In this document: positions 1 through 38,952 of the stretch, in pieces
How positions within the stretch are numbered: position 1 is the first letter of the stretch
Layout: the number at the start of each line of letters is the position of its first letter
Sequence record: ON229909.1
Strand: one strand, 5' to 3'
Source of the DNA: Escherichia phage vB_EcoM_CE1
DNA length: 64,000 nucleotides
The notes under the pieces: model-generated
The model's database searches: none
What the model was told of the DNA's origin: nothing
Seen by the model: only the letters and a program-made list of their open reading frames with translations
Program-made: the position numbers and the translations under genes

Positions 1-7
1 ATAAATA

Positions 8-337
8 ATGAACAAGTTAGAAATTATCAATGAACTTCGTCGTTGTGCAGAACCCACTCAAGAGGGGTGGGATATCTGGTACCATGGAGCTTATCTTGGA
101 ACTATCGTAAAGATTAAGACTGGTAAATACATGATTATTCGTGAAAGTAAAGATGCTCCAGTAGGTATTCGCAATAATTTCATGGCAGCTATAAGTTCCT
201 TTACGGATTCAGCTTACGAAATTTACCTTGCTGATTATAAAGAATTCCAGGAATCTCAACCAGTTATTCGCTCAATTGGTGTTAACAAAGCTCAACAGAA
301 AACTTTGTGGCAACGTATTAAAGGATGGTTTAAATGA
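8..337 (+). CDS. hypothetical early protein
   Basis: 109-aa ORF in track; lies in the small-ORF early region distal to arn as in T-even phages; stop overlaps next start. Confidence 0.5.
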
Positions 338-795
338 ATCCATTTATTAATCGTTTAAAAATGCTGAATGTTCCTTTATCTCGTGAAACTCCAGAAAGTC
401 TTGTTCAAAAATTTAAAGCACATGGTTATAAATGTACAGAAGAAGATATTCTGAAAGAAGTTCCTGAAATCTGTTGGCAGACCGCATACTGGGATGAAAA
501 CCAAAAGTACCAACGACGGATTGTTTGCGCAGCCAATCGTTTTAAATTAAAAGATGGACGAACTCTTATTATTCCGGGTGCTCGTCATTATTCTAAAGAC
601 ATGGCCGAAGTTTTAGATGTAGTTAAACCTCAATTAGTTACTCAGCAAGTTTGTGATGATGATCAAGGGTTTATTGACCAATATAGTAATTATTGGACAC
701 GTGAAGAAGCAATGATTATTGCAACTTACGCTGGACAAGTACGTATTGAACGCGGTGGTAGTGAAAAAGAACTTTACTCTGAGGACCTTTACTAA
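334..795 (+). CDS. hypothetical early protein
   Basis: 153-aa ORF; ATGA-type overlap with flanking ORFs suggests translational coupling. Confidence 0.5.
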
Positions 796-1091
796 TGAAT
801 ATTAAAAAGTTTCAAATTGATGGAATTATGAATCAAATCCAGGCACTGGAATATGCTAATAAAATGATGTCAACTAATTGGGGAATTTATGCCAATGAAC
901 CAGGATTTAAGTTCTGCGATATGGAATTCACTAAAAAGCTCGTAGGAAAAGATTATGTATGTCCATTTAGTTCTCCAGTAAATGGAATGCTAAAACCTGC
1001 TTTACGCGATCTTTATATTGCGATGAACGAAGAAATGATAAAAGAGTTAAAACGTCAACTGAAGGTGATTCAATTTGGCCAGGGAAATTAA
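795..1091 (+). CDS. hypothetical early protein
   Basis: 98-aa ORF, tightly packed with neighbours. Confidence 0.5.
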   Translation: MNIKKFQIDGIMNQIQALEYANKMMSTNWGIYANEPGFKFCDMEFTKKLVGKDYVCPFSSPVNGMLKPALRDLYIAMNEEMIKELKRQLKVIQFGQGN

Positions 1092-1293
1092 TTCAAAATC
1101 CGATTATTTTAACTCTCTCAATGATAAAGATAAAAATCTAATACGGCATTTTATCGTTGAGATGGGATATACTGATACATGTGATTTAAGAGAACATATA
1201 TTTGAATGTGGTGTAGCTAAAAAGTTTTCATTCACGTGCAAATGTTTAAGAGAGGTAATTCAGCACTATGAACAATTTAGTCGCAAAACATAA
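1075..1293 (+). CDS. hypothetical early protein
   Basis: 72-aa ORF; start may be an alternative codon. Confidence 0.4.
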   Translation: MAREINSKSDYFNSLNDKDKNLIRHFIVEMGYTDTCDLREHIFECGVAKKFSFTCKCLREVIQHYEQFSRKT

Positions 1294-1376
1294 TTTTAAT
1301 AAAGCTTCTGTTCATAAAGATAAGAAGAAAGCGTTTAAAGAATCTAATCGCAAACAGAAACATAAGGGGAAGGTCT

Positions 1377-1655
1377 ATGATTATTGATTCTCAATCTGTA
1401 GTTCAATATACAATAAAAATTGATATTCTAGAAAAGCTATATAAGTTTCTACCAAATTTATACCACTCAATTGTTAATGAATTAGTTGAAGAACTACATC
1501 TCGAGAATAATGATTTCTTGGTTGGAACTTATAAAGACCTCTCAAAAGCAGGATATTTTTACGTAATTCCAGCTCCAGGAAAAAGTATCGATGATGTATT
1601 AAAAACTATAATGATTTATGTCCATGATTACGAAATTGAAGATTATTTCGAATGA
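1377..1655 (+). CDS. arn: Arn anti-restriction protein (McrBC inhibitor)
   Basis: 92 aa, same length and position (next to asiA) as T4 Arn. Confidence 0.8.
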   Translation: MIIDSQSVVQYTIKIDILEKLYKFLPNLYHSIVNELVEELHLENNDFLVGTYKDLSKAGYFYVIPAPGKSIDDVLKTIMIYVHDYEIEDYFE

Positions 1656-1755
1656 GTCATAATCTTGAAAAGGTAATCGAGCATAATGTAGCTCAGGAAC
1701 GCGAGTCGTTCAAGGAATTCGTAGAAAAAATTTTTGAAGAAAATAACACAGACCA

Positions 1756-1786
1756 GTTTACAAATCAAGTGTCTGATGGTATTATA
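1756..1786 (+). promoter_or_regulatory. early-type sigma70 promoter upstream of asiA
   Basis: GTTTAC, ~18-nt spacer, TATTAT just upstream of asiA. Confidence 0.4.
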
Positions 1787-1816
1787 ATAAAGTCAACTAA
1801 TTGAGTGGTATAGTTA

Positions 1817-2089
1817 ATGAATAAAAACATTGATACAGTTCGTGAAATTATTACTGTTGCGTCTATTTTGATTAAATTTTCCAGAGAAGATATTGTTGAG
1901 AATCGTGCTAATTTTATTGCATTTCTGAATGAGATTGGAGTAACGCATGAAGGTAGAAAGTTAAATCAGAATTCATTCCGTAAAATTGTTTCTGAATTAA
2001 CTCAAGAAGATAAGAAAACCCTCATCGACGAATTCAACGAGGGTTTTGAGGGTGTATATCGATATCTAGAGATGTATACAAACAAATAA
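1817..2089 (+). CDS. asiA: AsiA anti-sigma70 factor
   Basis: 90 aa, sequence MNKNIDTVREIITVASILIKFSREDIVENRANFIAF... recognised as T4 AsiA. Confidence 0.95.
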   Translation: MNKNIDTVREIITVASILIKFSREDIVENRANFIAFLNEIGVTHEGRKLNQNSFRKIVSELTQEDKKTLIDEFNEGFEGVYRYLEMYTNK

Positions 2090-2746
2090 TTATTTAGCCC
2101 TTCCTAATATTCTGGCCGCCTGAGCACATATTGATTCAAGGCGGTCATTACTTATATGATCATTTCTATACCAGTACATGGTTATTGTTCCAGCATAGAT
2201 ATTATCCAAATTGAAATATGGACAACTGTACATGTAATTTATTTCGGGAGTAGGCTTTTTAGTTGGTAAAAAAGCAAATTTTGAGTCGGAATAATAATGA
2301 CGTCCATTTAAATGAACTGCATATTCATCCATAGTTTTATCAACAGGATATCCTCCAAGTGATTTTTCACTTATTGTTGAAGGTAATTTTCCTTCATATG
2401 CTATAATATCAACAAAATAGTTTAAGTTTTTAGGGCGGAAAGAATACACCGCACTAAAGTCTGCCTCAGATGATATGTGAACTATCTGGAGTTGTTCCAG
2501 GGCGACAGATTCAAAGCGTGCATTTCTTTCCTTTTCAATAATTTCACTGTATGTTTCATACTTTGATTGCTTATAGTACTCAAAGAAACTATCTCCCCTA
2601 TACCAAACAATCGCCATCATAAATAAAAGAATTACGACAGCTACCCGGGAAGCAAGAACTTTCCCGGTAGCGTTATCTTTGAACAAGCGATCTAGAACAC
2701 CCAACAGAATATCAGAGGGCGAAAATGATATTCTAGGTGCTGCCAT
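2090..2746 (-). CDS. t: holin T
   Basis: 218 aa, MAAPRISFSPSDIL... with single TMD (VAVVILLFMMAIVW); matches T4 holin; downstream of gene 38. Confidence 0.95.
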   Translation of the reverse strand: MAAPRISFSPSDILLGVLDRLFKDNATGKVLASRVAVVILLFMMAIVWYRGDSFFEYYKQSKYETYSEIIEKERNARFESVALEQLQIVHISSEADFSAVYSFRPKNLNYFVDIIAYEGKLPSTISEKSLGGYPVDKTMDEYAVHLNGRHYYSDSKFAFLPTKKPTPEINYMYSCPYFNLDNIYAGTITMYWYRNDHISNDRLESICAQAARILGRAK

Positions 2747-2777
2747 AGACCCTCCTTTTAAGGATATTTATTCAAAA

Positions 2778-3572
2778 TTATACCCTTGGACCATATATTA
2801 CTCCAACATTTTGCCATGTTGGAGCTGATCCTATAACAGCATATCCGGCAGCGCCACCAGCTCCAACTTTTAGAACTTTACCGCCATCATACCAGGCATT
2901 TTGTCCATTTGCGCCAGCATCACCACCCTGGCCAGAGTGAGCATTACCATAATTATAACCACCTCCTGGGCCATCATAAGAAGCTGCGCCGCCGGAATAA
3001 CCTCCGCCTCCTCCTGGGCCAAATGGTCTTCCTCCACCACCACCAATATCTTGCCATTTTGCACCAGAGTGAGGACGATAAGCGATACCACCTCCACCTC
3101 CACCTCCACCACAAATTACTCCACCGTTATTAATTCTTAATCGTCCACCGATGTCATTTTGAATACAATGACCACCTTGTTGACCATTACCATCTCCGCC
3201 GGAATGAGTCCATCCACCTTGTCCACCTCTACCCCACATATGGACGCCGCCACCAATATTCAACTGAACATATTCATTAGGTGTATCTCCGTACATGAAG
3301 AATAAAGGAACGTCTCTAGAATATGATACCAAATTTCCGGTAATATTAAACACTATAGGTGCACTACCTGCCTCAAAACATCTATCTCGGAACCATTGGC
3401 CATTGAAGTTATGGTCTGCTCCAAGCGTGTGAATTATTTCAACAGATCGACCTATCATATTACTCATCCAGAACGGAATGCCCATTCTTAATCGTTGGGC
3501 CGCGCCACCCATCCAATTTTGTCCTGTATTAACTACTGCAGACGATCCTACCCACGGTCCTGTTACTGCCAT
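2778..3572 (-). CDS. 38: gp38 long tail fiber adhesin, T2-type glycine-rich
   Basis: 264 aa from ATG with GGAGG SD (track ORF begins 4 codons earlier); poly-Gly motifs (GGGGGGGG, GGGGG) typical of T2/T6-type gp38 adhesins. Confidence 0.9.
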
Positions 3573-3603: not shown

Positions 3604-6600
3604 TTATTTTAACAACGATTTAACTAATGCTTTAAGTTCTTCGATTTCTGATTTAAGTTCTGCAATTTCTGCAGTATGCTCATTGATTGCGGCTGTATTT
3701 AAACCAATTACACCGTTATAGTTCAAACGAAGTAAAGCTTCGCCATCAGGGTCACCTTCAACTAATTCTGGCAAAATAGCTTGAACTTCTTGAGCTATCA
3801 AACCGGCGTTAGGTTCCCATTTCTGATTGCCTTCTTCATCTAGGCCTCGCTTCTGCATATAAGTGTAACCGTTAATTTTAGAAAGCTTCTGAGAAGCATT
3901 TTCAAATTTAACGAGGTCTTTTTTAACGCGAATATCAGAACGGACATAAACATCACGGACAAACGTTGAATAGCTATCATTTGCCTGAACGAGATGCCCA
4001 TGAGAAACAATTGCTTTACCGGCTTCTGTCCAAAAAGCACCGTATGAATCCCATAACCCCTCATGTGCCAGACGTTGAGACCCCCATGACGCAATATGAA
4101 CACCATCGGCAAACATGTTAATACGACCATCACCACCATGAACTAATCCTGTATCATTATCACCAATAGCAAGACACGCGCCGCCCCATACAGGGTCACC
4201 ACCGCCAGCTGATAATCTTCCAGTTTTAACCATGTTAGGAACATACATAACTCCATTGTGGTGGAATTCATAGATAGCTTGTGGGTCATGGCCATTTTCC
4301 TGGTTACCTACACGAATAATACCTTGTGCCCAGTTATTAGGAATGCGTCGCATACCGAAATCAACACCAGATACGTATCCTTCATTCGTAATAACAGATT
4401 TTCCTTTAATAATAGGATAATAACTATCATTACCGACGTAGCCAAAATCCACAAATACGGGAGCTTCTTGACGCCATTGATTTCCCCAATCGCCAGCCTG
4501 GTGACTGGTCCAGACAGAGCCATTAATAAAAAGTCGGTCCCTATTAAAATTAAATGTTCCTTGACCTTGAGGAGAAAGCGCTATTTCGCCGTTATTTGTT
4601 ATGTATACACCGCCTTGTGTAATGTAACTGTAAAAACCTAGACCATTATCGCCGCCGCCTTTGCCTATATACCAATTATTTGTACCACCTACATCACTAC
4701 GGATGTGCGATGAAGCGCCCACGCCTGCAGTTAAAACAAGGGCATCATTTCCAGCAGATAAAGTCAACCTACCGGTCATTGTATCGCCTTCTTTCGAAAC
4801 ACGAGTCGCAATAGCATCACGAATATTTGTAGTATCACCAGCAGAAGTAAACGGTTTCCAGATATCAGACCAGATGTTACCATTGCGAGCAATAGTAGCT
4901 TCACCTCCGCCGACAGAAACGTTATCTGGGAAGTTAACAGTACCGTCTTGATTAAAACGAGACGTATGGCCTTGTGAACCATCTTCTTTCAGATGATGAA
5001 TAACGAATGTACCCGAATTAATTTCAGTACCTAAAGACCAAACGCATTTACCGTTTAAGAATTTCTGTTTAACAATAGGATAATATTTACTTACCGCGTC
5101 ATCATCAATTTCTTGGAAAACAGGAGCTGCTTGTGCATATTGAATATCGTAACCGCCTGCACCTGCACCATGTCCACCGAATTTAATATAGCCGTTCGCA
5201 GCGAACGTATTGTAACTTGATTGTAAATCTGGAATAGTAACTTTACCGGTATCTAAAGCCATACTAAACGGGCGAAGTGGACCGATATCGCCATGTTTAC
5301 CTTCACCGTAAGCAGTTGGAATAATATGAAGACTGCCTTCTGAACGTCTAAAAATAGCTCCATAATCTGCATTCCAAATGCGAAGACCATTTACAGCATT
5401 TGTCGCGATTTCACCGGCTGCGCTGATTGTACCGTCAAATGTAGCATTTTTTACTACTGTCAAGTTTTCATTAACAATCTGGGTGCCATTTATAACCGAT
5501 TCGACTTTACCTGCAGTTGTTCGTTGAATATAGCTCATCCAACTAGTTGCGTCAGAAATTTCCATGACATTTTTACGAGTACCACCTACCGTAGTAAAAG
5601 TGTCACCCCAAACTTTGAGCTCTATATTATCAACTGAACTATATCCTATAGTATTTCCTTTAAAAAGCACAGTTGAAGCATTATTTCTACCATCGATATT
5701 AACAGAACCACCAATAACGTCAATATTACCAGGAGTGACTAATAAACCGCCGTGAGTATTAATGTTTGTAGTACCCTTACCGCGGAAATAATGATGATAA
5801 TTACCGCCTTGGTAATATCCTAAAAGAGTCTGACCATCTCCAAACGCGTTATTATCGTGATATGTCACGACAGTAGCAAGAGCATAGTTTTCAGTCGGAG
5901 GAGTAGTTAAATCTGTTCCATTAGTAGAATATCCAGCTACAAATTTTCTTAGGCTAGTTGTTTCGCTAGGGCTAAATAAAAATGTTTTCGTTCCATTATT
6001 GACGCTGAAATAATATCCATCCTGATGCCATTTTAGCCCGGTATCATTATCGCCAAGAGAAATTGAAGCAGTCCCTAATTCAGAGTATCCTTTAGAACCA
6101 CCTGGAAGACCTACAGAAATAGAATGACCGGCTTTCAATCCACCGGCCCAGTTAAACGACCAAAGATAAGTGTCTAAGCCATCTCCGGAATACCAGGTTA
6201 TTCCGTCATTAACATTAACTTCGTGGAAAATACCTGCTCCTACAGCATTTCGCATAACACGGAGGTGGTTAATAGCCGTTTCGCCTTCTTCAAATGGAGT
6301 ATTATTTGCTAATGAAGATATATCATAATCGCCCGTCTTCTTCCCATTTGTAATAACTTTATTGGTATAAATTACCGGAGTTGATACAGATTTCCACCCA
6401 AAAACTTCTGGTGAAGAAAACAAACCATTTCCATTAAAAGCGAAAGTGCTTTCTGAACCAGCTTTGTAATCTTGAACTCTAATATTAAGAACTTGTGTAG
6501 TTAATCCATCATTAGCAGGAGAAAAAATGATTCCACGTTCACGGTCAGCTAAATCATGAAAACGAACATGTGCTGTACCTGAACTTTTTGTAATAAGTTC

Positions 6601-6927
6601 GCCACCATGGGTCATTATCTGACCCGCAGCAATAATATCACGAGTTACGCGAGCAATACCCTTGAGATTGAAATCGCCAATTTGAGTGAAGGTGCCATTT
6701 AAAGTATAATCACCAGTTTGATTATAATTTCCTATATGAATAACATTCCCGTCAATACTACCGCCCTTAGCAAAACCCAGATCAATAATATTTCCTTGGT
6801 CATCTTTAGTAAAAAGTACACGGTCTTTTAAGTTTATAGCCAATTCACCTTCGGCTAATACTGAAGCGGCAGGACGTGCTCCTGCAGTTTTGCTTCTTTT
6901 AAATTGTATTTGTTTTAAAGTAGCCAT
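3604..6927 (-). CDS. 37: gp37 long tail fiber distal subunit
   Basis: 1107 aa, N-terminus [13 protein letters not shown]... as in T-even gp37; position between 36 and 38. Confidence 0.9.
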
Positions 6928-6935
6928 AAGTCCTC

Positions 6936-8778: not shown

Positions 8779-11700
8779 TTATTCAACCCATTCAAATTTA
8801 ACCGTTTTATTCACTGGGTCAGGAATAATGCGAACATTACCAATTCGTAAGAAATCACGAATAGTAAGATTCCCCATTATAGCATTATCAGATGGTAAAG
8901 CACCAATATCAGATGGCTGAGGAGGGTTACCCCCATCAAATACCTGAACAAAACTTGACCAAGAGTTTTTGGTTTTCTGCCATGTACGCGTCCAGCGAGT
9001 GGTGCGCGCTTCTGGGGTCGTTGGATAAGTAATCCAATCTTGGTAAAGCGAATCGAGTGTGTTACCAAACTGAGTCAACGTACCAGGAGATTTAACCTCT
9101 TCGCCGCGTTCTAAGTATGGAAGCCCAGTCACTTCATTAGTTTTTTCAACCATCTTAAAATAACCCGGGAACTGGTTATAAGTGGCTGAATCATTAATAT
9201 CGATTGACCAGAATCCTACAGTATCAGATGTTGGCGCACGAGTATATAAATCAGAGGTTTTAGTACCCTGAGAACGAATTCTCGAGTTGACAGTTAAACC
9301 ACCTGAAGTTATAGTAGCACCTTTGGCAATAATTAAGCTTTCACCAATTGTAACCTGACCAGATTGATTATTAATTGATAATGGACGTAATCCATTAAAT
9401 CCACCAGTCTGATCGCCAGATGCAGTAAGCATAAAATAGGTGTTAGCAGCATCATTACGAATAAAGAATCCATAATCACCGTTTATTGCTCTAAAAGCAT
9501 TCGATGATTTACTGATAAATTCGCCATTAGCAGTAACTGAACTACCGAATGTTGCAACGCCATTCGCATTCAAAGAACCTAAAGCATTCACATTTATTGG
9601 CATTACAGTACCATTAATGCTAAATGCTATATTACCATCTTTATCGCGTTGAGAATAAAAGTGATAAGATGTTTCATCACTAACTTCAAATACGGTAGAA
9701 CGTGTTGTATCTGATCCCCCACTAAATTGATTCCCCCACACGCTGACTGTCATCGTTTGAGCTGGGTTCGTCCCAGTTTGAGGTCCTTTCTCAAAAATCA
9801 GACGAGTTGCTGTTCCAGTATTAGAAATGGTTAGTGTACTATTTGCTGAAACTGATCCACCAAACGTAGCAGTACTAGATGATACAAGAGGGGCACTCAG
9901 ATTCGTTTGTTGGGTTAAGGTTAGTGAACCATTAACCGTTTGTGCAATATCCCTACGAATGAACTGAGATGAATCTAGACCATCCAGTAAATTACTATCT
10001 ACAGCTTTTGCTTTTAATGGCAAATAATTTGCTAATACACGGTTTAATTCATATGGCGATACTGCATAGCTATTTTTCTCGTATAATTCTAATGACTGTG
10101 TTGAACCTACCGTATCATTACCAACGAATGTAATTGAACCAGATGAAGTTTTAACAAAACCTCTTACCAGGGTAGTAGCTGCCCAAGTAGGTTCACTCTG
10201 CACAATCCATTTTAAATTTTTTGGAGATACAGCAGTATTTGCTGACGTTCCAGCTACAGTTTCAGACTGAGTTGCAACTTTAATAACACCTTCCTGCGAT
10301 TCGGTAGATTTAGTACCTAAAAGCTTTTTAGGAGTTATTAAAACATTATCCAATGTTCCTGCAGCAGCTTCAACTTGTGTAGCTACACGAAGTGTACCAC
10401 GTTGTGTCTCATTTGCTTCAAGAATATTAAGGGTATAATGGTCCCAGAGAGTTCCTGATTCAACTAATCCAGATAGAGCAACAACAGAAGTACGATCAGT
10501 ACTATTAAATCTGGTTTTAATTTTTAATGGTGTAGAGATACGAGTATCGTCGACGCCTGCGTCGAATTCAACTTGCGTAGCAATTTCAGCTATACCACTT
10601 AAACTTTCAGTTGCTATACGGTCATTTAAAGTTTTCGGAGTGACTGCACGAGTATAATCAGTTCCTGTATTAACTTCACTTTGCGTAGCAATTTCAATTA
10701 AACCAATTCTTGCATCAGTTGATGTCTTTTTATGTAACGTTTCTGGCGTTACAACCGCATTTGCCCATCCTTCTTGGCTTTGTCCAGCAATTACTTCACT
10801 TTCAACTGCTAAAATTACTGCACCTTGCTGTGTTGGAGTAGCTTTATACTGATCTAAAGCTTTAGGCGAAACAACTAAATTATCAGTGTTTTTATTATAA
10901 ACATTCGTACCATTTAATTCACGGCTAGAAGCTGGAGTAGCACCTGCAGTAGATACAAAGGTTACAATACCAGATAATGATTCAGAACCTTGACGAGCTT
11001 GAAGCTTTTTAGGAGTGATGATTGTAGTATCATCAGTACCTGCGTTAGTTTCTTGCTGCGTAGCAATTTCAGCAACACCTCTACGAGTTTCTGTAGCAGT
11101 TCTTTCATTCAGCTTTTTAGGAGTGATGATAATATCATCAGCAAAAGAGAATGTAGTGTCCTGGTTCACTTGGGCAGTAGTTGCTATTCTTGCGATACCT
11201 CTACGAGTTTCTGTAGCAGTACGGTTAGCTAATGTTTCTGGTGTAATTGCTAATTCTTTTTGTGGAGAATTTTCTAAATCAGCATTAGCTTGAGCTTGTG
11301 TAGCTAAAGCAATTACGCCTAATCTTGCTCTAGTAGAATCATTTAAAGAATCAACTCTTTCTACAGTTGGCACGTTTTGTTGTACAACCCAGTATTTTCC
11401 ATCAGAATCTTCTATATAAGCAAGCTCTAAAACTGGAACATAATTAGTTTCACCATTAAAAACTAATTCTTGAACTGTAACCCATTTAGTTTCAGGCGGA
11501 TATTCTGAGCGTTTTGGGAATTGCAGCAATTGAACTGAAGAAGCAATTTTATCTTCACCGGCAGCTTTGATTTTAACTGTGTGTCCTTTTCTCATGTAAT
11601 TCATGGAAATTTTAACAGTATCACCAACAGAAATATCAGTCGGAAGCTGAAGTTCAATTGTCTGAGTTGTTCCGTTATTCGCACCAAATACCATAACTTC

Positions 11701-12648
11701 TTCATTTGGACGAATACTAGAATTAGTTGTTATAATACGTAAACGTGCTTTACTATCCCCGTCAAACAATCTCCACAATTTCTCATTATCATCAAACATC
11801 AAGAAACCGTCAATCGTTGTACGGCCTTCAATGGAATGAGTTCCAACTTCTTGTATTGAAGTCGTTTCATCGTATGTAGTAACAATTGTATGATAAAGCG
11901 GATTTAGTTTATCTAAATCAACGAAATTAATAATATCGCCATGATTAGCAAATCTTGGAAGTTTAACATTAATTGGTGCAGCAGAAGTAAATCTACGTAC
12001 GATAAAATCGTTAGATTGCGCCTGATAAAGACTTGCCGGTGTTACGACTACAGCTTCTCTGCTATAATCAGCAACATACATTTGCCACAGACGATTACTA
12101 AAAATTAAAACTATCTGCGATTTTGGATGAGTCATTAGTACTGAACGTACTTGTTCGCCTCTGAAGTTTACAATGCTTTGCACTGGAGCTACAATTAAAA
12201 CTTGGTTAACACCAGGTTTTCCACCAATATCTTGAAGAACGATAGTATCTCCATCAATTGGAGAAGATGGCAAAGTAAATGTAATGTCATTACCAGCTGC
12301 AGTATCAACTGAAATTGATTCGCCTGATTTTAATTGATAAGGTCCTGATGAAACAGTTGTCCAATTAGCATCGGTACGTAACGCTCTCCAGCGTACACTA
12401 TTAAAAGCTCCTGCTGGTTTTGGAATATCATTTATAGCAGCCCAAAAGCGGTTATCATAAATGATTACAAAATCTTTTAAATATCCACGAGTTGGATCAT
12501 ATTGTTGAACTGTGTTTTCTTGAATTAAGTAATCAACGTTAACACCGTCAGTTCCTACGGTACGATCAGCTAAAGCTACGTTGATTATTTTATCGCCACC
12601 TGCGTCCAGACCATCTTCTGCTCTGAACTTTCTTTTAATCTCGGCCAT
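8779..12648 (-). CDS. 34: gp34 long tail fiber proximal subunit
   Basis: 1289 aa, same length as T4 gp34; N-terminus MAEIKRKFRAEDGLDAGGDKIINVALADR...; internal TATETRRG repeats. Confidence 0.95.
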   Translation of the reverse strand: MAEIKRKFRAEDGLDAGGDKIINVALADRTVGTDGVNVDYLIQENTVQQYDPTRGYLKDFVIIYDNRFWAAINDIPKPAGAFNSVRWRALRTDANWTTVSSGPYQLKSGESISVDTAAGNDITFTLPSSPIDGDTIVLQDIGGKPGVNQVLIVAPVQSIVNFRGEQVRSVLMTHPKSQIVLIFSNRLWQMYVADYSREAVVVTPASLYQAQSNDFIVRRFTSAAPINVKLPRFANHGDIINFVDLDKLNPLYHTIVTTYDETTSIQEVGTHSIEGRTTIDGFLMFDDNEKLWRLFDGDSKARLRIITTNSSIRPNEEVMVFGANNGTTQTIELQLPTDISVGDTVKISMNYMRKGHTVKIKAAGEDKIASSVQLLQFPKRSEYPPETKWVTVQELVFNGETNYVPVLELAYIEDSDGKYWVVQQNVPTVERVDSLNDSTRARLGVIALATQAQANADLENSPQKELAITPETLANRTATETRRGIARIATTAQVNQDTTFSFADDIIITPKKLNERTATETRRGVAEIATQQETNAGTDDTTIITPKKLQARQGSESLSGIVTFVSTAGATPASSRELNGTNVYNKNTDNLVVSPKALDQYKATPTQQGAVILAVESEVIAGQSQEGWANAVVTPETLHKKTSTDARIGLIEIATQSEVNTGTDYTRAVTPKTLNDRIATESLSGIAEIATQVEFDAGVDDTRISTPLKIKTRFNSTDRTSVVALSGLVESGTLWDHYTLNILEANETQRGTLRVATQVEAAAGTLDNVLITPKKLLGTKSTESQEGVIKVATQSETVAGTSANTAVSPKNLKWIVQSEPTWAATTLVRGFVKTSSGSITFVGNDTVGSTQSLELYEKNSYAVSPYELNRVLANYLPLKAKAVDSNLLDGLDSSQFIRRDIAQTVNGSLTLTQQTNLSAPLVSSSTATFGGSVSANSTLTISNTGTATRLIFEKGPQTGTNPAQTMTVSVWGNQFSGGSDTTRSTVFEVSDETSYHFYSQRDKDGNIAFSINGTVMPINVNALGSLNANGVATFGSSVTANGEFISKSSNAFRAINGDYGFFIRNDAANTYFMLTASGDQTGGFNGLRPLSINNQSGQVTIGESLIIAKGATITSGGLTVNSRIRSQGTKTSDLYTRAPTSDTVGFWSIDINDSATYNQFPGYFKMVEKTNEVTGLPYLERGEEVKSPGTLTQFGNTLDSLYQDWITYPTTPEARTTRWTRTWQKTKNSWSSFVQVFDGGNPPQPSDIGALPSDNAIMGNLTIRDFLRIGNVRIIPDPVNKTVKFEWVE

Positions 12649-25163: not shown

Positions 25164-25221
25164 GTTTACAAGTCCCTCGTGTTGTGTTATAGTAGTCTTA
25201 CTGACATAACACGAGGACTTT
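25164..25221 (+). promoter_or_regulatory. early-type promoter embedded in an RBS-sequestering hairpin, upstream of alc
   Basis: GTTTAC, 17 nt, TTATAG/TATAGT; inverted repeat CCTCGTGTT...AACACGAGG covers the GAGGA SD; 48-nt block repeated at 38573. Confidence 0.5.
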
Positions 25222-36141: not shown

Positions 36142-36164
36142 GAATAAACACTAGAGAGGATATG

Positions 36165-38213
36165 ATGGAACTAATTACAGAATTATTTGACGAAGATACT
36201 ACTCTTCCAATTACAAACTTAAATCCAAAGAAGAAAATACCGCAAATTTTTTCAGTTCATGTTGATGACGCAATTGAACAACCAGGCTTTCGTTTATGTA
36301 CCTATACATCTGGAGGTGATACTAATCGTGATTTAAAGATGGGCGATAAAATGATGCATATTGTTCCTTTTACATTAACCGCTAAAGGTTCAATTGCTAA
36401 ATTGAAAGGTCTTGGTCCAAGCCCAATTAATTATATCAATTCAGTTTTTACTGTTGCAATGCAAACAATGCGTCAGTATAAAATTGATGCTTGTATGCTT
36501 CGTATTCTTAAGTCTAAAACCGCTGGTCAAGCTCGACAAATTCAAGTTATTGCTGATAGACTTATCCGTAGTCGTTCAGGTGGCAGATACGTCCTTCTTA
36601 AGGAACTCTGGGATTATGATAAAAAGTATGCATATATTCTTATACATCGCAAAAATGTATCACTAGAAGACATTCCAGGGGTTCCGGAAATTAGTACCGA
36701 GCTCTTTACTAAGGTTGAATCGAAGGTCGGTGATGTTTATATCAATAAAGATACTGGAGCTCAAGTAACTAAAAATGAGGCAATTGCAGCATCTATTGCA
36801 CAAGAAAATGATAAACGTTCTGACCAAGCTGTAATCGTTAAAGTTAAAATTTCCCGTAGAGCAATTGCACAAAGTCAGTCATTGGAATCTTCTAGATTTG
36901 AAACACCAATGTTTCAAAAATTTGAGGCTTCAGCAGCAGAATTAAATAAACCCGCCGACGCGCCTTTAATTTCTGATGCTAACGAATTAACCGTTATTTC
37001 TACTTCAGGATTTGCATTAGAGAATGCTCTTAATAGTGTTACAGCTGGAATGGCATTCAGAGAAGCTTCTATAATTCCTGAAGATAAAGAATCTGATGTT
37101 AATGCAGAAATAAAAAATAAAGCTTTAGAAAGATTACGAAAAGAATCTATTACTTCAATAAAAACTTTAGAAACTATTGCTTCTATAGTCGATGATACTT
37201 TAGAAAAATATAAAAGTGCTTGGTTAGAAAGAAATATTAGCAAGCATTCGCATTTAAATCAAGATGCTGCAAATGAGTTAGTGCAAAATTCTTGGAATGC
37301 AATAAAAACAAAGATTATTCGAAGAGAATTACGTGGATATGCTCTTACCGTTGGATGGTCATTGCATTCTATAGTCGAAAATAAAGATTCATCTAAATAC
37401 ACACCGGCTCAAAAACGCGGAATTCGTGAATATGTGGGTTCAGGATATGTAGACATGAATAATGCTCTTTTGGGATTATATAATCCAGATGAGCGTACAA
37501 GTATTTTGACAGCACCCGAAATAGAACAAGCCATCGATAATTTAGATTCAGCCTTTAAAAATGGTGATCGATTGCCAAAAGGTATTACTTTATATCGTTC
37601 GCAACGAATGTTACCTTCAATATATGAAGCATTGGTAAAAAATCGAGTTTTTTATTTTAGAAACTTTGTGTCAACATCATTATATCCAAATATTTTTGGT
37701 ACTTGGATGACTGATTCATCTATAGGTGTTTTACCAGACGAAAAGCGTCTAAGTGTTTCTATTGATAAAACTGATGAAGGGCTTGTTAATTCTAGCGATA
37801 ATTTAGTCGGAATTGGATGGGTTATTACTGGGGCTGATAAGGTCAATGTTGTTTTACCCGGTGGAAGTTTAGCGCCTTCAAATGAAATGGAAGTCATTTT
37901 GCCACGTGGATTAATGGTCAAAGTTAATAAAATAACCGATGCATCTTACAACGATGGAACAGTTAGAACTAACAACAAGCTTATTCAAGCTGAAGTTATG
38001 ACTACAGAAGAACTCACCGAATCGGCAATTTATGACGGTGACCGTTTAATGGAAACTGGTGAATTGGTTACAATAACAGGTGATATAGAAGATAGAGTTG
38101 ACTTTGCATCATTTGTTTCATCAAATGTTAAACAGAAAGTAGAATCATCTCTTGGAATTATTGCGTCTTGCATAGATATTGCAAACATGCCTTACAAGTT
38201 CGTTCAAGGATAA
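36165..38213 (+). CDS. alt: Alt ADP-ribosyltransferase (packaged)
   Basis: 682 aa from MELITELFDEDTTLPITNLNPKKKIPQIF...; matches T4 Alt. Confidence 0.95.
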   Translation: MELITELFDEDTTLPITNLNPKKKIPQIFSVHVDDAIEQPGFRLCTYTSGGDTNRDLKMGDKMMHIVPFTLTAKGSIAKLKGLGPSPINYINSVFTVAMQTMRQYKIDACMLRILKSKTAGQARQIQVIADRLIRSRSGGRYVLLKELWDYDKKYAYILIHRKNVSLEDIPGVPEISTELFTKVESKVGDVYINKDTGAQVTKNEAIAASIAQENDKRSDQAVIVKVKISRRAIAQSQSLESSRFETPMFQKFEASAAELNKPADAPLISDANELTVISTSGFALENALNSVTAGMAFREASIIPEDKESDVNAEIKNKALERLRKESITSIKTLETIASIVDDTLEKYKSAWLERNISKHSHLNQDAANELVQNSWNAIKTKIIRRELRGYALTVGWSLHSIVENKDSSKYTPAQKRGIREYVGSGYVDMNNALLGLYNPDERTSILTAPEIEQAIDNLDSAFKNGDRLPKGITLYRSQRMLPSIYEALVKNRVFYFRNFVSTSLYPNIFGTWMTDSSIGVLPDEKRLSVSIDKTDEGLVNSSDNLVGIGWVITGADKVNVVLPGGSLAPSNEMEVILPRGLMVKVNKITDASYNDGTVRTNNKLIQAEVMTTEELTESAIYDGDRLMETGELVTITGDIEDRVDFASFVSSNVKQKVESSLGIIASCIDIANMPYKFVQG

Positions 38214-38216
38214 ATC

Positions 38217-38565
38217 ATGGAACTTATTACATAATTATTTGACGGCGCTTCGGCGCCGGTTGTTAACTTAAATCCTAAGCATAAAATACCGCAAATTTTT
38301 GCTATTCAAGCCGGCGAAGAAAGCGTGCTTCCTGGATTTAGATTTTGTACATACACCTCTGGCGGTGATACAGATAAAACGTTAAACCAGGCGACAAAAT
38401 GATGCATATCGTAATGATAGGTGTTAATGAGAAACTATCATTAGTTAAGCTTAAAAACTTGGGTGGAAATCCAATTGGTGTCATTAATGCTGTTTTGATA
38501 CTGCTCTTCAAACAATGAAACAGTATAAAATCGACGCATGCCTATTACGCGTACTAAAAAGTTCA
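38217..38565 (+). pseudogene. degenerate duplicate of the alt 5' region
   Basis: starts ATGGAACTTATTACATAA (MELIT then stop); downstream frames encode LFDGASAPVVNLNPKHKIPQIF, GFRFCTYTSGGDT, MMHIV, KQYKIDACLLRVLK, all alignable to Alt residues 1-125 but broken by a stop and frameshifts. Confidence 0.7.
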
Positions 38566-38572
38566 AAATGTA

Positions 38573-38633
38573 GTTTACAAGTCCCTCGTGTTGTGTTATA
38601 GTAGTCTTACTGACATAACATGAGGAACACAAA
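38573..38633 (+). promoter_or_regulatory. second copy of the 48-nt early promoter/hairpin block
   Basis: 48 nt identical to 25164..25211, followed by GAGGAA SD and ATG at 38634. Confidence 0.5.
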
Positions 38634-38924
38634 ATGAAATCTTCTTTACGCTTTTTAGGTCAAGAACTTGTAGTTGAAGGCGTTATTCCTGCTGATAATG
38701 CTTTTAATGAAGCAGTTTATGATGAATTTATCAAAATTTTCGGAACAGATAAAAAGTTTGGAATTTTTCCTTCTGAAAATTTTTCAAAGCCAGAACAGAC
38801 TGAAAGTATTTTCCAAGGTGTAGTAACAGGCAAATTTGAGTCAGAAGCTCCGGTAAAAATTGAAGTTTATATTGAAGACAGTTTAGTTGCTTCAGTTGCT
38901 GCTTTCATTTCATTCCGTAAATAA
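38634..38924 (+). CDS. hypothetical protein
   Basis: 96-aa ORF with SD, driven by the duplicated promoter block; followed by a hairpin. Confidence 0.55.
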   Translation: MKSSLRFLGQELVVEGVIPADNAFNEAVYDEFIKIFGTDKKFGIFPSENFSKPEQTESIFQGVVTGKFESEAPVKIEVYIEDSLVASVAAFISFRK

Positions 38925-38930
38925 AAATAT

Positions 38931-38948
38931 GGGGACCTTTCGGTCCCC
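38931..38948. terminator. bidirectional hairpin between convergent ORF 38634 and gene 54
   Basis: GGGGACC-UUUC-GGUCCCC. Confidence 0.5.
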
Positions 38949-38952
38949 ATTG

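Follow-up and report, generated by a model that had tools for sequence, protein, structure and literature searches.

The window analyzed here, a 64,000-nt stretch of the genome of Escherichia phage vB_EcoM_CE1 (ON229909.1), is a Tequatrovirus (T4-like) genome segment in which a degenerate copy of the beginning of an Alt-like gene, called the stump below, lies directly downstream of alt (Table 1). The gene order is that of T4—ligase, alt.1, alt, stump, promoter, alt.-3, gene 54, and gene 48—with the baseplate genes 54 and 48 on the strand opposite to alt and alt.-3. The start of alt equivalent to that of T4 is the second ATG of its open reading frame (ORF), at 36165, and its product carries the PF03496 (ADPrib_exo_Tox) domain at residues 374 to 614 (E = 2e-33). 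The stump, 357 nt long, comprises codons 1 to 116 of an Alt-like paralog together with the last 11 nt of that gene, including its stop codon TAG at 38571 to 38573, and is devoid of the catalytic domain. The intact alt.-3 ends in ..FISFRK* and is followed by a bidirectional terminator-like hairpin at 38929 to 38950; in T4, alt.-3 mutations that extend the C terminus to alternative downstream stop codons lead to escape from the CmdTAC defense system (PMC11618068). Elsewhere in the window, five 41-nt direct repeats (10271 to 11220; 63 to 100% identical to the reference copy, at spacings of 306, 108, 375, and 120 nt) and a 33-nt repeat pair (at 11003 and 11111) all lie within a long minus-strand ORF (8779 to 12648), which probably encodes an internally repetitive structural protein.

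Table 1. Features of the alt to alt.-3 region, and the second copy of the promoter element, in the window
Feature	Position	Strand	Basis
Second 54-nt copy of the promoter/stem-loop element	25164..25217	+	98% identical to 38573-38626; fold z = -5.8
alt, packaged Alt ADP-ribosyltransferase, intact	36162..38213	+	ORF list (683-aa mechanical ORF), PF03496, T4 annotation
Stump, very probably of a second, ancestrally full-length Alt-like gene (T4 alt.-1 plus alt.-2)	38217..38573	+	96% match to RB14, ~70% to own alt
Nonsense codon 6, GAA to TAA (TAA6)	38232..38234	+	Alignments, allele table
CGGCGC-UUCG-GCGCCG hairpin, 6 bp, all GC	38243..38258	+	Hairpin scan, MFE structure, alignment
Frameshift 1, A5 to A4	38376..38379	+	A-run splitting the stump into alt.-1 and alt.-2 in T4
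Shortened alt.-2 remnant ORF, 39 aa (67 aa in T4)	38399..38518	+	ORF list
Frameshift 2, T5 to T4, shortening the alt.-2 remnant	38493..38496	+	Alignment, allele table
Deletion junction, single copy of the 9-nt direct repeat CTAAAAAGT	38554..38562	+	Overlap of two BLAST segments
Predicted PeSL-type early promoter and stem-loop for alt.-3	38573..38626	+	Promoter scan (10/12 matches), fold, repeat
alt.-3, intact, 96 aa, DUF5498	38634..38924	+	PF17602 (E = 1e-64), T4 annotation

The locus is already known in kind, as T4 alt.-1/alt.-2, and is an ordinary one. In the T4 reference record (NC_000866; T4p199 and T4p198), the corresponding DNA is annotated as alt.-1 (186 nt) and alt.-2 (204 nt), which overlap by 4 nt (ATGA), and a note in that record attributes both to an "old duplication of the first part of gene alt" that acquired a stop codon. 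Nolan et al. (2006, PMC1524935) count the T4 ORFs alt.-1 and alt.-2 among the paralogous duplications of adjacent genes and also mention alt paralogs, some partial and some full, for RB49 and 44RR; by their description, RB49ORF183c, 44RRORF188c, and 44RRORF187c are likewise tandem alt paralogs adjoining alt, some of them truncated, in other genera. The 601 nt around the stump find matches in about 500 phage records, T4 included; positions 38217 to 38572 are 100% identical to phage vB_vPM_PD112, and the stump shares 97.8 to 98.5% nucleotide identity with T4 records.

The sequence-only reading had taken this stretch for a copy of the alt 5′ end, and the underlying similarity is real and far above chance. 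With 38150 to 38700 as the query against the whole window, blastn matches alt at 36157 to 36364 (70.5% over 210 nt, E = 1e-20) and, in a second block, at 36435 to 36493 (72.9% over 59 nt); the MAFFT alignment of 38217 to 38600 with 36165 to 36560 is colinear from the ATG onward; and a repeat search of the window recovers the same alt/stump pairs. In a three-frame translation of the stump, the homologous reading changes frame twice, and a 3-nt gap relative to alt near codon 10 is an in-frame paralog difference rather than a lesion. Comparison with other T-even genomes leads to T4 alt.-1/alt.-2 and to full-length paralogs in RB14 and T2, and here the proposal of a duplicate limited to the alt 5′ region fails: the stump shares 96% identity with nucleotides 1 to 348 of a complete tandem Alt-like gene, which marks it as a deletion remnant of such a gene.

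In RB14 and T2, alt (697 aa) is followed by a 2,058-nt gene for a 685-aa Alt-like protein—under the name alt.-2 in the RB14 record—and then by alt.-3. Homology between this 685-aa paralog and Alt extends over the whole length (42% amino acid identity, E = 3e-159), and the paralog carries the PF03496 catalytic domain at residues 416 to 620. A more sensitive search with the stump alone as the query gave matches over at least 80% of its length in 489 records; in most of these (T2, RB14, ime09, Sf21, and others), the identity is 93 to 97% over positions 1 to 346 and the matching region is annotated as a full Alt-like ADP-ribosyltransferase. We counted alleles with short discriminating megablast queries against the phage collection: the paralog 5′ end occurs in 484 records, at least 80% of a 1,631-nt segment absent from the window in 402, the undeleted left boundary in 315, and a sequence spanning the deletion junction in 89 (90 with a longer query). 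RB14, T2, and P922, along with about 400 further records, carry an intact full-length paralog. From these counts, the full-length paralog is the majority state, and T4 and the window belong to a minority of roughly one-fifth. A scan of IMG/VR anchored on Alt.-3 yielded only five loci, four of them usable, a number too small for surveying the population.

Set against the full-length paralogs of T2, RB14, RB51, and P922, the stump is orthologous to their first 116 codons and last 11 nt (96% nucleotide identity), and the flanks are the same in both kinds of genome: the alt stop, TAAATC, and the ATG upstream, and a stop codon abutting the −35 box downstream. What the window is missing is 1,699 bp, the PF03496 domain included, so that its copy cannot encode the enzyme. 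As an Alt-like ADP-ribosyltransferase, the stump fails both in domain content and in its reading frame, which is interrupted by a nonsense codon, two frameshifts, and an out-of-frame deletion. Even the longest stump ORF, the 128-aa ORF of phage FL23, contains no Pfam domain, the stump ending at paralog residue 116. A third state of the locus is found in ECML-134 (NC_025449, 3501 to 5561), where a single 686-aa Alt-like gene directly precedes the promoter and alt.-3. By sliding-window identity, nucleotides 1 to ∼450 of this gene are of alt type (93 to 100% to RB14 alt) and those from ∼500 to the end are of paralog type (91 to 100%), so that it looks like an alt/paralog chimera from unequal crossover between the tandem paralogs.

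The junction itself is marked by a short repeat. Window positions 38100 to 38562 align with RB14 (locus L009) positions 4384 to 4848 at 96.1% identity, and positions 38554 to 38950 align with 6539 to 6935 at 96.5%, the two segments overlapping by 9 nt. This overlap, CTAAAAAGT, is present twice in RB14 (4840 to 4848 and 6539 to 6547), 1,699 bp apart, and the window has a single copy; both copies are found also in T2 and in one IMG/VR genome (paralog positions 340 and 2039). The following 11 nt (38563 to 38573, TCAAAATGTAG) are the last codons (..KFKM) and the stop codon of the ancestral full-length paralog, and the G of its TAG doubles as the first base of the 54-nt repeat, that is, of the GTTTACA in the −35 region of the next promoter, which places the junction 11 nt upstream of the alt.-3 early promoter/stem-loop. 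The deletion extends from codon 116 to 7 codons before the stop, taking the whole catalytic domain, and, as 1,699 equals 3 × 566 + 1, the fusion is out of frame.

These coordinates also revise the sequence-only reading in its details. Homology to Alt does begin at the ATG, as it held, and covers 116 codons instead of residues 1 to 125; it ends at 38562 in the segment alignment with RB14 and not exactly at the promoter repeat, which measures 54 nt in the repeat search rather than 48 bp. A rearrangement junction is present, as it had proposed, yet at the 9-nt microhomology 11 nt upstream and not at the promoter repeat. Its view of the stretch as a pseudogenized N-terminal Alt paralog is borne out by the alignment with the full-length paralog and by the lesions described below.

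The deletion is the derived state: the longer gene is complete, carries its domain, and is homologous to Alt throughout, which makes an insertion into a stump implausible as its origin. Deletion between short direct repeats is a classical result of slipped mispairing or illegitimate recombination; in the literature searched, we found no directly relevant T4-specific paper on deletions of this type. The ancestral order would have been alt, a 685-aa tandem Alt-like paralog, the PeSL early promoter, and alt.-3, still the majority arrangement in Tequatrovirus, and the lineage of T4 and the window would have lost 1,699 bp between the two CTAAAAAGT copies by slipped mispairing or microhomology-mediated illegitimate recombination, the mechanism to which the repeat signature points. 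In FL23 and AV119, two Danish pig-associated phages, T2-type paralog polymorphisms lie to the left of the junction and a T4-type promoter lies to its right, and the A-run is an intact A5. Two explanations fit this haplotype: a recurrent deletion at the 9-nt repeat or a crossover very near the junction.

Beyond the deletion, the window carries further lesions. The claimed nonsense codon is confirmed in the alignments and the allele table; codon 6 is GAA in alt, in T4, and in every full-length paralog, and the exact TAA6 allele occurs in 44 of 484 records, or about half of the stump carriers (44/89). The claim of at least two frameshifts likewise holds, with two 1-nt frameshifts relative to the intact paralog, A5 to A4 and T5 to T4. 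Five of five full-length copies have the A5 run, as do the stumps of FL23 and AV119, and the A4 form occurs in T4, JEP6, PD112, and the window, while the shortened T-run is found also in PD112, 235Ecol030PP (Poland), and IME537 (China) and is absent from GRNsp7 and T4. The window thus shares with T4 alt.-1/alt.-2 the position, the junction, the A4 frameshift, and the promoter immediately downstream and differs from it by a G-to-T change giving TAA6 in alt.-1 and by T5 to T4 in alt.-2. Both T4 ORFs (61 and 67 aa) are thereby broken, leaving 5 codons and a 39-aa ORF; this remnant is labeled an "Alt.-2"-like hypothetical protein in PD112, IME537, and 235Ecol030PP.

We sampled alleles from 5 full-length copies and 14 stumps, the window included. 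All 5 full-length copies are intact (685 aa), and 14 of 14 stumps have the identical junction, over which five different secondary lesions are distributed: TAA6, the A-run −1, the T-run −1, a 7-nt duplication, and a 9-nt deletion. The stumps comprise (i) FL23, with the deletion only and an uninterrupted 128-aa ORF in which 116 paralog residues are followed by 12 out-of-frame residues, up to a TAG inside the −10 box; (ii) AV119, with the deletion and TAA6; (iii) T4, T4_ev151, and two IMG/VR contigs, with the deletion and the A5-to-A4 change that creates alt.-1 and alt.-2; (iv) JEP6 and GRNsp7, with the deletion, A4, and TAA6; (v) HY03, in the JEP6 state plus the 7-nt tandem duplication; (vi) FN, in the JEP6 state plus the 9-nt deletion; and (vii) the window, PD112, IME537, and 235Ecol030PP, with the deletion, A4, TAA6, and T5 to T4. 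The window allele is the most decayed in the sampled series. Ranked by severity, decay would run from FL23 (deletion) through T4 (plus A5 to A4) to the window, PD112, IME537, and 235Ecol030PP (plus TAA6 and T5 to T4). A linear order of the secondary lesions is unsupported, since all four combinations of TAA6 and A-run alleles exist, so that these lesions have been reshuffled by recombination or are recurrent. In the HY03 record (NC_031047, positions 1 to 3000), the annotation of the alt region shows a 645-nt Alt-like fragment and, upstream of it, several small "hypothetical" ORFs on the opposite strand, which suggests either that sequence errors have introduced frameshifts or that alt itself is truly decaying.

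Patterns of substitution separate the intact copies from the stumps. Over the 113 codons shared by the full-length copies, pN/pS is 0.01, with 27 synonymous variable sites and 1 nonsynonymous one, so the full-length paralog is under strong purifying selection. Variants private to stumps, by comparison, comprise 9 nonsynonymous or nonsense and 8 synonymous changes (against 1:27, Fisher P = 2e-4), in a test that draws on few sequences and judges "private" against only five intact copies. Between stumps, pN/pS is 0.10 and not 1, and full-length copies are probably the source of much of this variation, by descent or by exchange; the value therefore does not show constraint. The 9:8 ratio of private changes, together with the five secondary lesions, indicates that protein-level constraint was lost after the deletion. 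Independent disabling lesions and the loss of the purifying selection seen in intact orthologs are the marks of a unitary pseudogene, and both are present here. We are confident that the stump is a neutrally decaying remnant of a full-length Alt-like gene lost by deletion at the 9-nt repeat.

It seems unlikely that the loss of the second Alt-like gene was adaptive and recurrent instead of neutral, with the retained N-terminal fragment perhaps a transient modulator of Alt. Collapse of the tandem pair has taken at least two routes, microhomology deletion (the T4 type) and an apparent unequal crossover (ECML-134), and the FL23/AV119 haplotype suggests that the T4-type deletion itself may have arisen more than once. 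If adaptive loss were true, selection would act to shed or remodel an injected effector that is sensed by some hosts or is costly, and the 128-aa fragment of FL23, or Alt.-1/Alt.-2 of T4, might modulate Alt before decay.

We consider it quite improbable, too, that the stump has been kept for a function of its own, whether through its small proteins (by competing with Alt, for example), as an RNA or DNA element such as an alt 3′ untranslated region, or as a spacer or upstream element of the alt.-3 promoter. The ATGA overlap of the T4 ORFs is compatible with coupled translation, and the paralog ATG at 38217 keeps a good Shine-Dalgarno (SD) sequence, AAGGA, inside the last alt codons; in the window, however, both ORFs are broken, as alt.-1 is by TAA6 in 44 of the 89 stump carriers, and the secondary lesions and the nonsynonymous excess argue against protein-level constraint. 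Ribosomes, which probably still initiate at the old ATG, would stop after MELIT (5 codons), and the alt.-2 remnant has no ATGA overlap with an upstream translated ORF. We infer that the stump has no coding function and that it is probably transcribed only as the 3′ trailer of the alt mRNA, which would run up to the stem-loop of the alt.-3 cassette.

At the RNA level, one candidate for such a function is the all-GC UUCG hairpin, which lies 30 nt past the alt stop and is not followed by a T-tract; most other GC-rich UUCG hairpins of the window are found outside ORFs of at least 80 aa. It is invariant in 16 aligned stump and full-length copies, within the coding sequence of the intact paralogs, and its 81-nt context shows no excess stability over shuffled sequence (z = −1.35). 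We thus reject it as an adaptation that followed pseudogenization, ancestral as it is, though an effect on the 3′ end of alt mRNA or on paralog expression is conceivable. Further loss in the sampled stumps amounts to at most 9 nt. So little shrinkage could hint that the DNA or RNA is under some constraint, for instance through spacing, through the UUCG hairpin, or through the A-rich stretch preceding the promoter, or could equally reflect a young deletion, the stumps being 93.6 to 100% identical to the window.

The promoter that follows the stump has the predicted organization of a PeSL, an element described as a σ70-like early promoter with a stem-loop between or overlapping its boxes (Arbiol et al. 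2010), for which the T4/PST promoter form is TTTACW-N17-TAYWAT (Comeau et al. 2014). Its predicted boxes are TTTACA at −35 (38574 to 38579) and TATAGT at −10 (38597 to 38602, preceded by TG), with a 17-nt spacer; a stem-loop at ∼38581 to 38626 has a folding energy of −23 kcal/mol (z = −4.5), and 0 of 200 shuffled sequences fold as well. An SD sequence and the alt.-3 ATG at 38634 follow on the 3′ side, the cassette occupying 38573 to 38633. With its predicted promoter form, a stem-loop over the spacer and −10 box, an SD sequence with start codon, and a near-identical second copy, the element is thus like the known PeSL cassettes. The second copy, 13.4 kb away, corresponds to the T4 rnlA-alc intergenic region and is presumably the alc early promoter. 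The two 54-nt copies differ at one stem position, with a G-C pair in the alc copy (CCTCGTG/CACGAGG), a G-U pair at alt.-3 of the window (CCTCGTG/CATGAGG), and an A-U pair in RB14 (CCTCATG/CATGAGG); the RB14 (L009) and T2 (L010) counterparts lie at ∼6548 to 6601. In this G-C/G-U/A-U series, stem pairing is kept through changes on both arms. The T2 copy has further changes in the 5′ arm, and its −10 box is TATAAT.

This repeated promoter bears on another origin of the stump, namely, that tandem duplication was limited to the 5′ third of alt and the copy then decayed, with the distal junction at the promoter repeat through PeSL-mediated shuffling. The alignment of the stump with the alt 5′ end, the near-identical promoter/stem-loop 13.4 kb away, published reports of PeSL-mediated indels in T4-type phages (Arbiol et al. 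2010; Comeau et al. 2014), and the wording of the T4 GenBank note, which speaks of the "first part of gene alt," all speak for it. We nevertheless hold this origin to be highly improbable. The stump is far closer to the 5′ end of the full-length paralog (96%) than to alt (∼70%), and the 11 nt between the microhomology and the promoter belong to the paralog itself, as its 3′ end and stop codon. In PeSL-mediated rearrangement, moreover, the crossover falls within the PeSL, whereas here the breakpoint lies upstream, with the left repeat copy inside coding sequence, and the promoter follows the paralog stop codon directly in undeleted genomes too, so that a PeSL exchange is neither needed nor visible. 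We accordingly reject PeSL recombination as the origin of the junction; the element would be a bystander spared by the deletion. The 20 A-rich bases that precede the −35 box of alt.-3 came through the deletion unchanged, which may be why this deletion was tolerated.

That the extra lesions of the window are sequencing or assembly errors (homopolymer miscalls) in a true T4-type alt.-1/alt.-2 is hardly credible: although T5 to T4 sits in a homopolymer, a classic error site, and some related records are of poor quality (HY03, for example, with its fragmented alt annotation), TAA6 is a substitution present in 44 records, the T-run allele is no one-off error, as it is common to several independent isolates (PD112 and the Polish and Chinese phages, the close relative GRNsp7 keeping T5), and the reading of the stump is the same either way.

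The decaying remnant of a full-length gene changes how the T4 locus is to be read: its "old duplication of the first part of alt" is, with high probability, the stump of a full-length second Alt-like ADP-ribosyltransferase. In the literature searched, we found no statement of a deletion-stump origin of alt.-1/alt.-2, and nothing beyond Nolan et al. (2006), nor any functional study of the full-length paralog. The refinement is an incremental correction—a junction at a 9-nt repeat and a graded decay series—and not a new kind of feature. The small ORFs at this locus are better annotated as pseudogene fragments than as "hypothetical proteins" or "ADP-ribosyltransferase." The deletion also means that T4, the model phage, is without an injected-effector paralog that is kept by about four-fifths of the sequenced Tequatrovirus genomes.
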